Shown here: in pieces, positions 62,143 to 62,319 of the stretch | How the letters are laid out: each line of letters begins with the position of its first letter | Numbering within the stretch: position 1 is the first letter of the stretch | The notes under the pieces: model-generated | The model's input: only the letters and a program-made list of their open reading frames with translations | What the model was told of the DNA's origin: nothing | The model's database searches: none | Position numbers and translations under genes: made by a program | Assembly: GCF_050320075.1 (NCBI RefSeq) | Contig: NZ_CP190018.1 | Direction: 5' to 3' (one strand) | Origin: Escherichia coli | GTDB lineage: Bacteria; Pseudomonadota; Gammaproteobacteria; Enterobacterales; Enterobacteriaceae | Length of the DNA stretch: 64,000 bases

Positions 62143-62319
62143 TTAACTCAAACCGAGTTGTTTCAGAATGGCTTTACGCAATGGTTCTTTAATCTCTTCG
62201 CTGGGGTGACGCGGCATGACACTGCGCCTCCCGTGAAACCTGAGTTTTAAATGGTTGCTGCCATTCGCTACATCGACGCCCTGAGATTCGAGCCAACGTC
62301 TGAACTCGCTTTGTTTCAC
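62143..62319 (-). CDS. hicA: HicA mRNA interferase toxin
   Basis: 58-aa product (V/M)KQSEFRRWLESQGVDVANGSNHLKLRFHGRRSVMPRHPSEEIKEPLRKAILKQLGLS; GTG start preceded by GGAGG; absent from the ORF track. Confidence 0.8.
   Translation of the reverse strand: MKQSEFRRWLESQGVDVANGSNHLKLRFHGRRSVMPRHPSEEIKEPLRKAILKQLGLS

Follow-up and report, generated by a model that had tools for sequence, protein, structure and literature searches.

A default listing of open reading frames (60-aa threshold) of a 64,000-nt stretch of Escherichia coli DNA (contig NZ_CP190018.1; hereafter the window) contained the antitoxin gene hicB, with 145 aa as the longest ORF, and lacked hicA. This raises the question of whether hicB is an orphan antitoxin at this locus or is preceded by an intact toxin gene, and, in the latter case, where that gene starts and in which state it is.

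Identity of hicA and its partner gene

When the listing was extended down to 30 aa, a frame with the product MKQSEFRRWLESQGVDVANGSNHLKLRFHGRRSVMPRHPSEEIKEPLRKAILKQLGLS appeared directly upstream of hicB. The features of the gene pair are as follows:

62143..62319, minus strand: hicA coding sequence, 58 codons plus TAA, GTG start; encodes the HicA mRNA interferase toxin
62319..62317, minus strand: GTG start codon of hicA
62145..62143, minus strand: TAA stop codon of hicA, inside the end coordinate
61681..62097, minus strand: hicB antitoxin gene, directly downstream of hicA; 138 aa with the start used by RefSeq

The translation of hicA matched the Pfam family HicA_toxin (PF07927) with 33.2 bits (cut-off 27, E=5.5e-8) over residues 5-57 of 58. 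It aligned with chain A of PDB 6HPB ("mRNA interferase toxin HicA") over the full length and gap-free, with 56/58 identical residues (E=2.5e-34), and on the basis of this 97% identity the window protein is expected to share the 6HPB fold. The catalytic residue His23 is kept in its context G20-S21-N22-H23, which was invariant across five alleles. An earlier note on this DNA had described the frame as intact, which agrees with the gap-free alignment to K-12 (56/58 amino acids identical); a frameshift or stop codon was sought in the alignment to K-12 hicA, and the window has neither. The strand, absent from the earlier note, is the minus strand. An NCBIfam scan of HicA and HicB gave zero matches; the family is covered by Pfam instead.

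In K-12 MG1655 and in strain CFSAN061763, whose sequence equals that of the window along the 1,001 bp compared, RefSeq annotates hicA with identical coordinates. The order and orientation of the genes rlhA-yncJ-hicA-hicB-ydcR are common to the window, CFSAN061763 and K-12. The RefSeq counterpart of the window HicA is WP_000813795.1, and all inspected RefSeq records with a full-length copy were labelled hicA. The assertion that the gene is easy to miss thus does not hold for standard annotation, which already calls it. Its absence from the ORF list had been attributed in part to the GTG start. The absence itself is real at the default threshold of 60 aa, and the length of 58 aa is responsible for it; the start codon plays no part, because the ORF caller accepts GTG and lists hicA once the threshold is lowered. 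As a point of method only, a floor of 60 codons drops real small toxin genes, so that antitoxins can look orphaned.

The gene order of the pair is toxin-first. The hicB product matched HicB_lk_antitox in its N-terminal part (30 bits, cut-off 27) and HTH_3 in its C-terminal part (31.5 bits, cut-off 23), its PDB matches were 6HPB_B and 6U0I, and it is identical to K-12 HicB in 137/138 residues, the sole difference being L63S within the variable stretch 63-66. Since hicB adjoins an intact hicA, it is not an orphan antitoxin in the window, where the two genes pair. The orphan scenario put forward earlier does apply to many other E. coli genomes (see below).

Several side observations concern the neighbourhood. 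The start of hicB is ambiguous between the second ATG at 62097 (138 aa; used by RefSeq and 6HPB/6HPC) and the upstream ATG at 62118 (145 aa), both of which lack a strong Shine-Dalgarno sequence; PDB 6U0I contains the 145-aa form with three additional residues. A disruption of rlhA, considered on account of a listed 353-aa ORF, was rejected, as the frame is open to the end of the window. The Rfam scan returned sub-threshold matches only, among them naRNA4 at 62772-62811 on the minus strand (30.9 bits versus a gathering cut-off of 59.5, E=0.0034). This stretch just downstream of yncJ is GC-rich and palindromic and looks like a REP-type repeat.

Translation start and reading frame of hicA

The GTG start, the GGAGG upstream of it and the length of 58 codons given in the earlier note were all borne out by the ORF listing and by reading of the start region, which contains these elements:

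62328..62324, minus strand: Shine-Dalgarno sequence GGAGG, separated from GTG by the 4-nt spacer CGAT
62316..62321, minus strand: AUGUGA context, in which an out-of-frame AUG (62321..62319) overlaps GUG and is directly followed by UGA; context GGCGATGTGAAACAA

The start of hicA reads GAUGUGA, and the distance between the Shine-Dalgarno sequence and GTG equals a DtoStart of 12 in the nomenclature of PMC9841429. In that study (NAR 2022), K-12 hicA is included in Table 2 among 18 "atGTG-starting" genes, with the Shine-Dalgarno sequence GGAGG, a DtoStart of 12, no predicted ambiguity and a very low PaxDb abundance of 0.021 ppm. Reporters with a spacing of 10/12 initiated exclusively at GUG, and GUG initiation was inefficient with short spacers (PMC9841429). 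A weak start of hicA fits a toxin that is to be made sparingly. An in-frame TGA is located 9 codons 5' of GTG (62346..62344), the intervening codons include neither ATG nor GTG nor TTG, and the remaining in-frame start-like codons within hicA are Met35, Leu47 and Leu57 only. Given the upstream TGA and the lack of any other upstream start, GTG is the sole start that gives a full-length protein.

Two other readings of this frame have to be weighed. One is that it is open by chance and contains no gene. Frames of 56-58 aa do arise by chance nearby, as other ORFs of this size are present within the same 3 kb, and 58 codons alone are not above chance. Against this stand the Pfam score above the gathering threshold, the 97% identity to a crystallised protein and the conserved synteny and annotation. 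Moreover, pN/pS calculated from five divergent intact alleles was 0.09 in the HicA frame versus 1.1 and 2.6 in the two alternative frames, so that purifying selection is specific to this frame, and the GTG start was found in 5/5 of these alleles. The probability of a chance frame is hence negligible. The other reading places the translation start elsewhere, either at AUG 62321, which overlaps GUG, or at codon 35, an internal in-frame AUG. It draws on the general preference for AUG over GUG, on the finding that AUGUG contexts can be ambiguous (PMC9841429) and on an SD-like GGGAGG 9 nt 5' of the Met35 ATG. However, the frame of the overlapping AUG terminates at once (AUG-UGA), and the "no ambiguity" score of hicA and the GUG-only reporters mentioned above point to GUG. 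A start at Met35 would lose His23 and most of the fold, and two alleles have GGGCGA in place of the GGGAGG that precedes it. The in-frame TGA rules out a longer form, and the protein that was crystallised has 58 residues. We therefore regard a start other than the annotated GTG as extremely unlikely and retain GTG as the start of hicA.

The GGGAGG in front of Met35 (62217-62232, minus strand) is replaced by GGGCGA through synonymous changes in MDR_56 and DETEC-S586, and this internal motif is probably coincidental. A 56-aa ORF starting with ATG (62189-62359, minus strand) overlaps most of hicA in another frame and starts inside the operator-like palindrome described below; the pN/pS values above 1 in both alternative frames argue that it is spurious. 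The idea that AUG-UGA overlying GUG is an unrecognised start-stop regulator was rejected as novel, as hicA is already tabulated, and as unambiguous, in PMC9841429.

Control region and proposed working of hicAB

The 161 nt upstream of the hicA GTG are identical to K-12 except for one SNP at 62451. The following elements were assigned upstream of hicA:

62346..62338, minus strand: extended -10-like element TGATATACT, candidate P2 element, from the sequence together with PMC7167474 and PMC6957337
62352..62369, no strand assigned: perfect 7-bp inverted repeat GTAAACA-N4-TGTTTAC, just 5' of the -10-like element, identical to K-12
62370..62540, minus strand: rest of the hicA-yncJ intergenic region, which should hold the Sxy/CRP-dependent P1

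In the K-12 literature, two promoters are described. P1 lies upstream, has a CRP-S motif and Sxy as its activator, and its mRNA allows synthesis of both proteins (PMC8138530, PMC6957337, PMC11594946). P2 is repressed by HicB, and its transcript, truncated at the ribosome-binding site of hicA, serves for synthesis of HicB only (PMC8138530, PMC6957337, PMC11594946, PMC7167474). This literature also reports that excess HicA derepresses P2. Because the control region equals that of K-12 except for one SNP, the published P1 and P2 elements should be present in the window.

The element TGATATACT is a candidate for the -10 region of P2, with a transcription start predicted at ~62332..62329, right at the Shine-Dalgarno sequence. 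A start ~7 nt past this element would be at ~62330, the first G of GGGAGG, which fits the published P2. The palindrome 62352..62369 is a candidate operator of P2 for binding of the helix-turn-helix protein HicB. Comparison of five divergent alleles revealed no variation in the start region GGGAGGCGATGTG, in the -10-like element or in the palindrome's right arm, and one of the five had a substitution in the left arm. A scan of the hicA upstream region with the sigma-70 consensus picked up neither P1 nor P2, and a CRP-S/CRP scan upstream of hicA yielded no exact TGCGA/TCGCA half-site, the best matches having 3-4 mismatches. The positions proposed here for P1 and P2 thus derive from the literature combined with our reading of the sequence. 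Within 62370..62480, the part of the intergenic region compared with K-12, the SNP at 62451 was the single difference. This position is A in the window and C in K-12, FCI51 and BH100N, and it falls within the region expected to hold P1.

By analogy with K-12, from whose literature catalysis, neutralisation and the two-promoter logic are taken, the locus would work as follows. HicA would act as a small enzyme that cleaves mRNA independently of the ribosome and uses His23 for catalysis. The N-terminal domain of HicB would cover this histidine, as PMC8138530 describes for folded HicB, and its C-terminal helix-turn-helix would bind DNA. The toxin level would be held down in two ways, namely by a GUG located only 4 nt behind the Shine-Dalgarno sequence, a poor arrangement for GUG, and by the division of labour between a Sxy/CRP-dependent P1 for both proteins and a HicB-repressed P2 for HicB only. 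A surplus of HicA would lift the repression of P2 by HicB, and the antitoxin would be replenished. For the S40/E41 allele of the window, activity of HicA and its neutralisation by HicB are likewise extrapolated from K-12.

Alleles, loss of hicA and related systems

The window HicA differs from that of K-12 by C40S and D41E with all other residues kept, which makes it free of cysteine; at the nucleotide level, the ORF has 6 differences in 177 nt. Ser40 was present in 4/5 divergent intact alleles and is therefore a common natural state, and Glu41 was present in 2/5. The window allele was found at an identity of at least 99% in 134 complete genomes. Co-variation of HicB L63S with HicA S40/E41 was considered and rejected, as strain HYM1 combines HicA S40/E41 with HicB L63. 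Between intact hicA alleles, pS reached up to 0.34 at a pN of ~0.02-0.03 (window versus L005, L006 and L007). This is a very high synonymous divergence for one E. coli chromosomal locus and suggests old allelic lineages or recombination.

The presence of hicA was surveyed in 5,426 complete E. coli genomes:

5,415/5,426 complete E. coli genomes: hicAB locus present
3,442/5,426 complete E. coli genomes: full-length hicA match
~811/5,426 complete E. coli genomes: match to the first ~68% of hicA only, as counted from match-coverage classes
1,173/5,426 complete E. coli genomes: no hicA match

Four or five of the hicAB-locus matches were on records classed as plasmid, not chromosome. In the class with partial matches, 22 bp between two TGCG direct repeats are deleted, corresponding to window positions 62187-62208 (FCI51, L003:1782-1936). 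A 60-nt query spanning the deletion junction was non-discriminating, because both of its halves matched intact genomes too. In RefSeq, the hicA with the 22-bp deletion is recorded as an "mRNA interferase" pseudogene with a frameshift. In FCI51, the deletion genome inspected, hicB is intact and identical to that of K-12 and is a true orphan antitoxin. In the K-12-type allele, the first TGCG repeat arises through the TGC codon of Cys40; with AGC (Ser40), as in the window, this repeat is shortened to GCG.

The class without a match contains a deletion of ~445 bp (~1,160-1,173 genomes), which corresponds to window positions ~61920-62364 (BH100N, L004:1739-1975). It reaches from the palindrome's left arm into hicB at about codon 60, and hicA and the toxin-binding half of HicB are gone. 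The remnant is the HTH-encoding 3' part of hicB, annotated as partial hicB or as "helix-turn-helix domain-containing protein". At a coarse level, HicA has already been described as rare in phylogroups B2 and C (PMC10790755).

These losses bear on a third reading, according to which C40S and D41E abolish toxicity, so that the window hicA would be inactivated or decaying and hicB functionally an orphan despite the open frame. The two adjacent amino acid changes relative to K-12 are real, and hicA is evidently dispensable and often lost, either by the 22-bp frameshift deletion or together with part of hicB. On the other hand, the recurrence of Ser40 and Glu41 in divergent intact alleles, the conservative nature of both substitutions with His23 and all other residues kept, the pN/pS of 0.09 across intact alleles and the occurrence of the allele in 134 genomes make inactivation very improbable. 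The window hicA is a common natural allele of a known gene and has no sign of decay. We are highly confident that the ORF is the chromosomal hicA, i.e., the toxin gene of the type II toxin-antitoxin operon hicAB, and that this allele (C40S, D41E) is intact and probably functional.

A more far-reaching proposal has two parts. The cysteine-free S40/E41 HicA may differ from the K-12 protein in toxicity, affinity for HicB or redox sensitivity, and the recurrent loss of hicA with intact hicB (~15% of complete E. coli genomes) may stem not from neutral decay but from selection that favours HicB as a stand-alone regulator or an anti-addiction factor. That both parts are correct is speculative, and we consider the combination unlikely.

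The closest known system is K-12 hicAB (HicA WP_000813794.1; 6HPB chain A), for which the hicA gene, its GTG start, the weak ribosome-binding arrangement and the two-promoter control have all been published previously. It shares with the window the locus, synteny, length, GTG, Shine-Dalgarno sequence and stop codon, and differs in having C40 and D41 in HicA and L63 in HicB where the window has S40, E41 and S63. HicA3B3 of Yersinia pestis, HicAB of Burkholderia pseudomallei and HicBA of Streptococcus pneumoniae have the HicA_toxin family in common with the window HicA and, like the E. coli system, comprise a small toxin with a catalytic histidine and a folded HicB that neutralises and represses (PMC8138530, PMC11594946). 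In sequence, however, these three are only distant relatives of the window hicAB, and a review states that the two-promoter arrangement has been demonstrated in E. coli hicAB alone (PMC11594946). The toxTA locus of Haemophilus influenzae resembles hicAB in its toxin-first order, its CRP-S/Sxy promoter and an internal P2 that the antitoxin represses and from which only the antitoxin is made (PMC6957337). In contrast to HicA, ToxT is RelE/ParE-like, and there is no sequence homology to HicA or HicB, so that toxTA is a regulatory analogue only.
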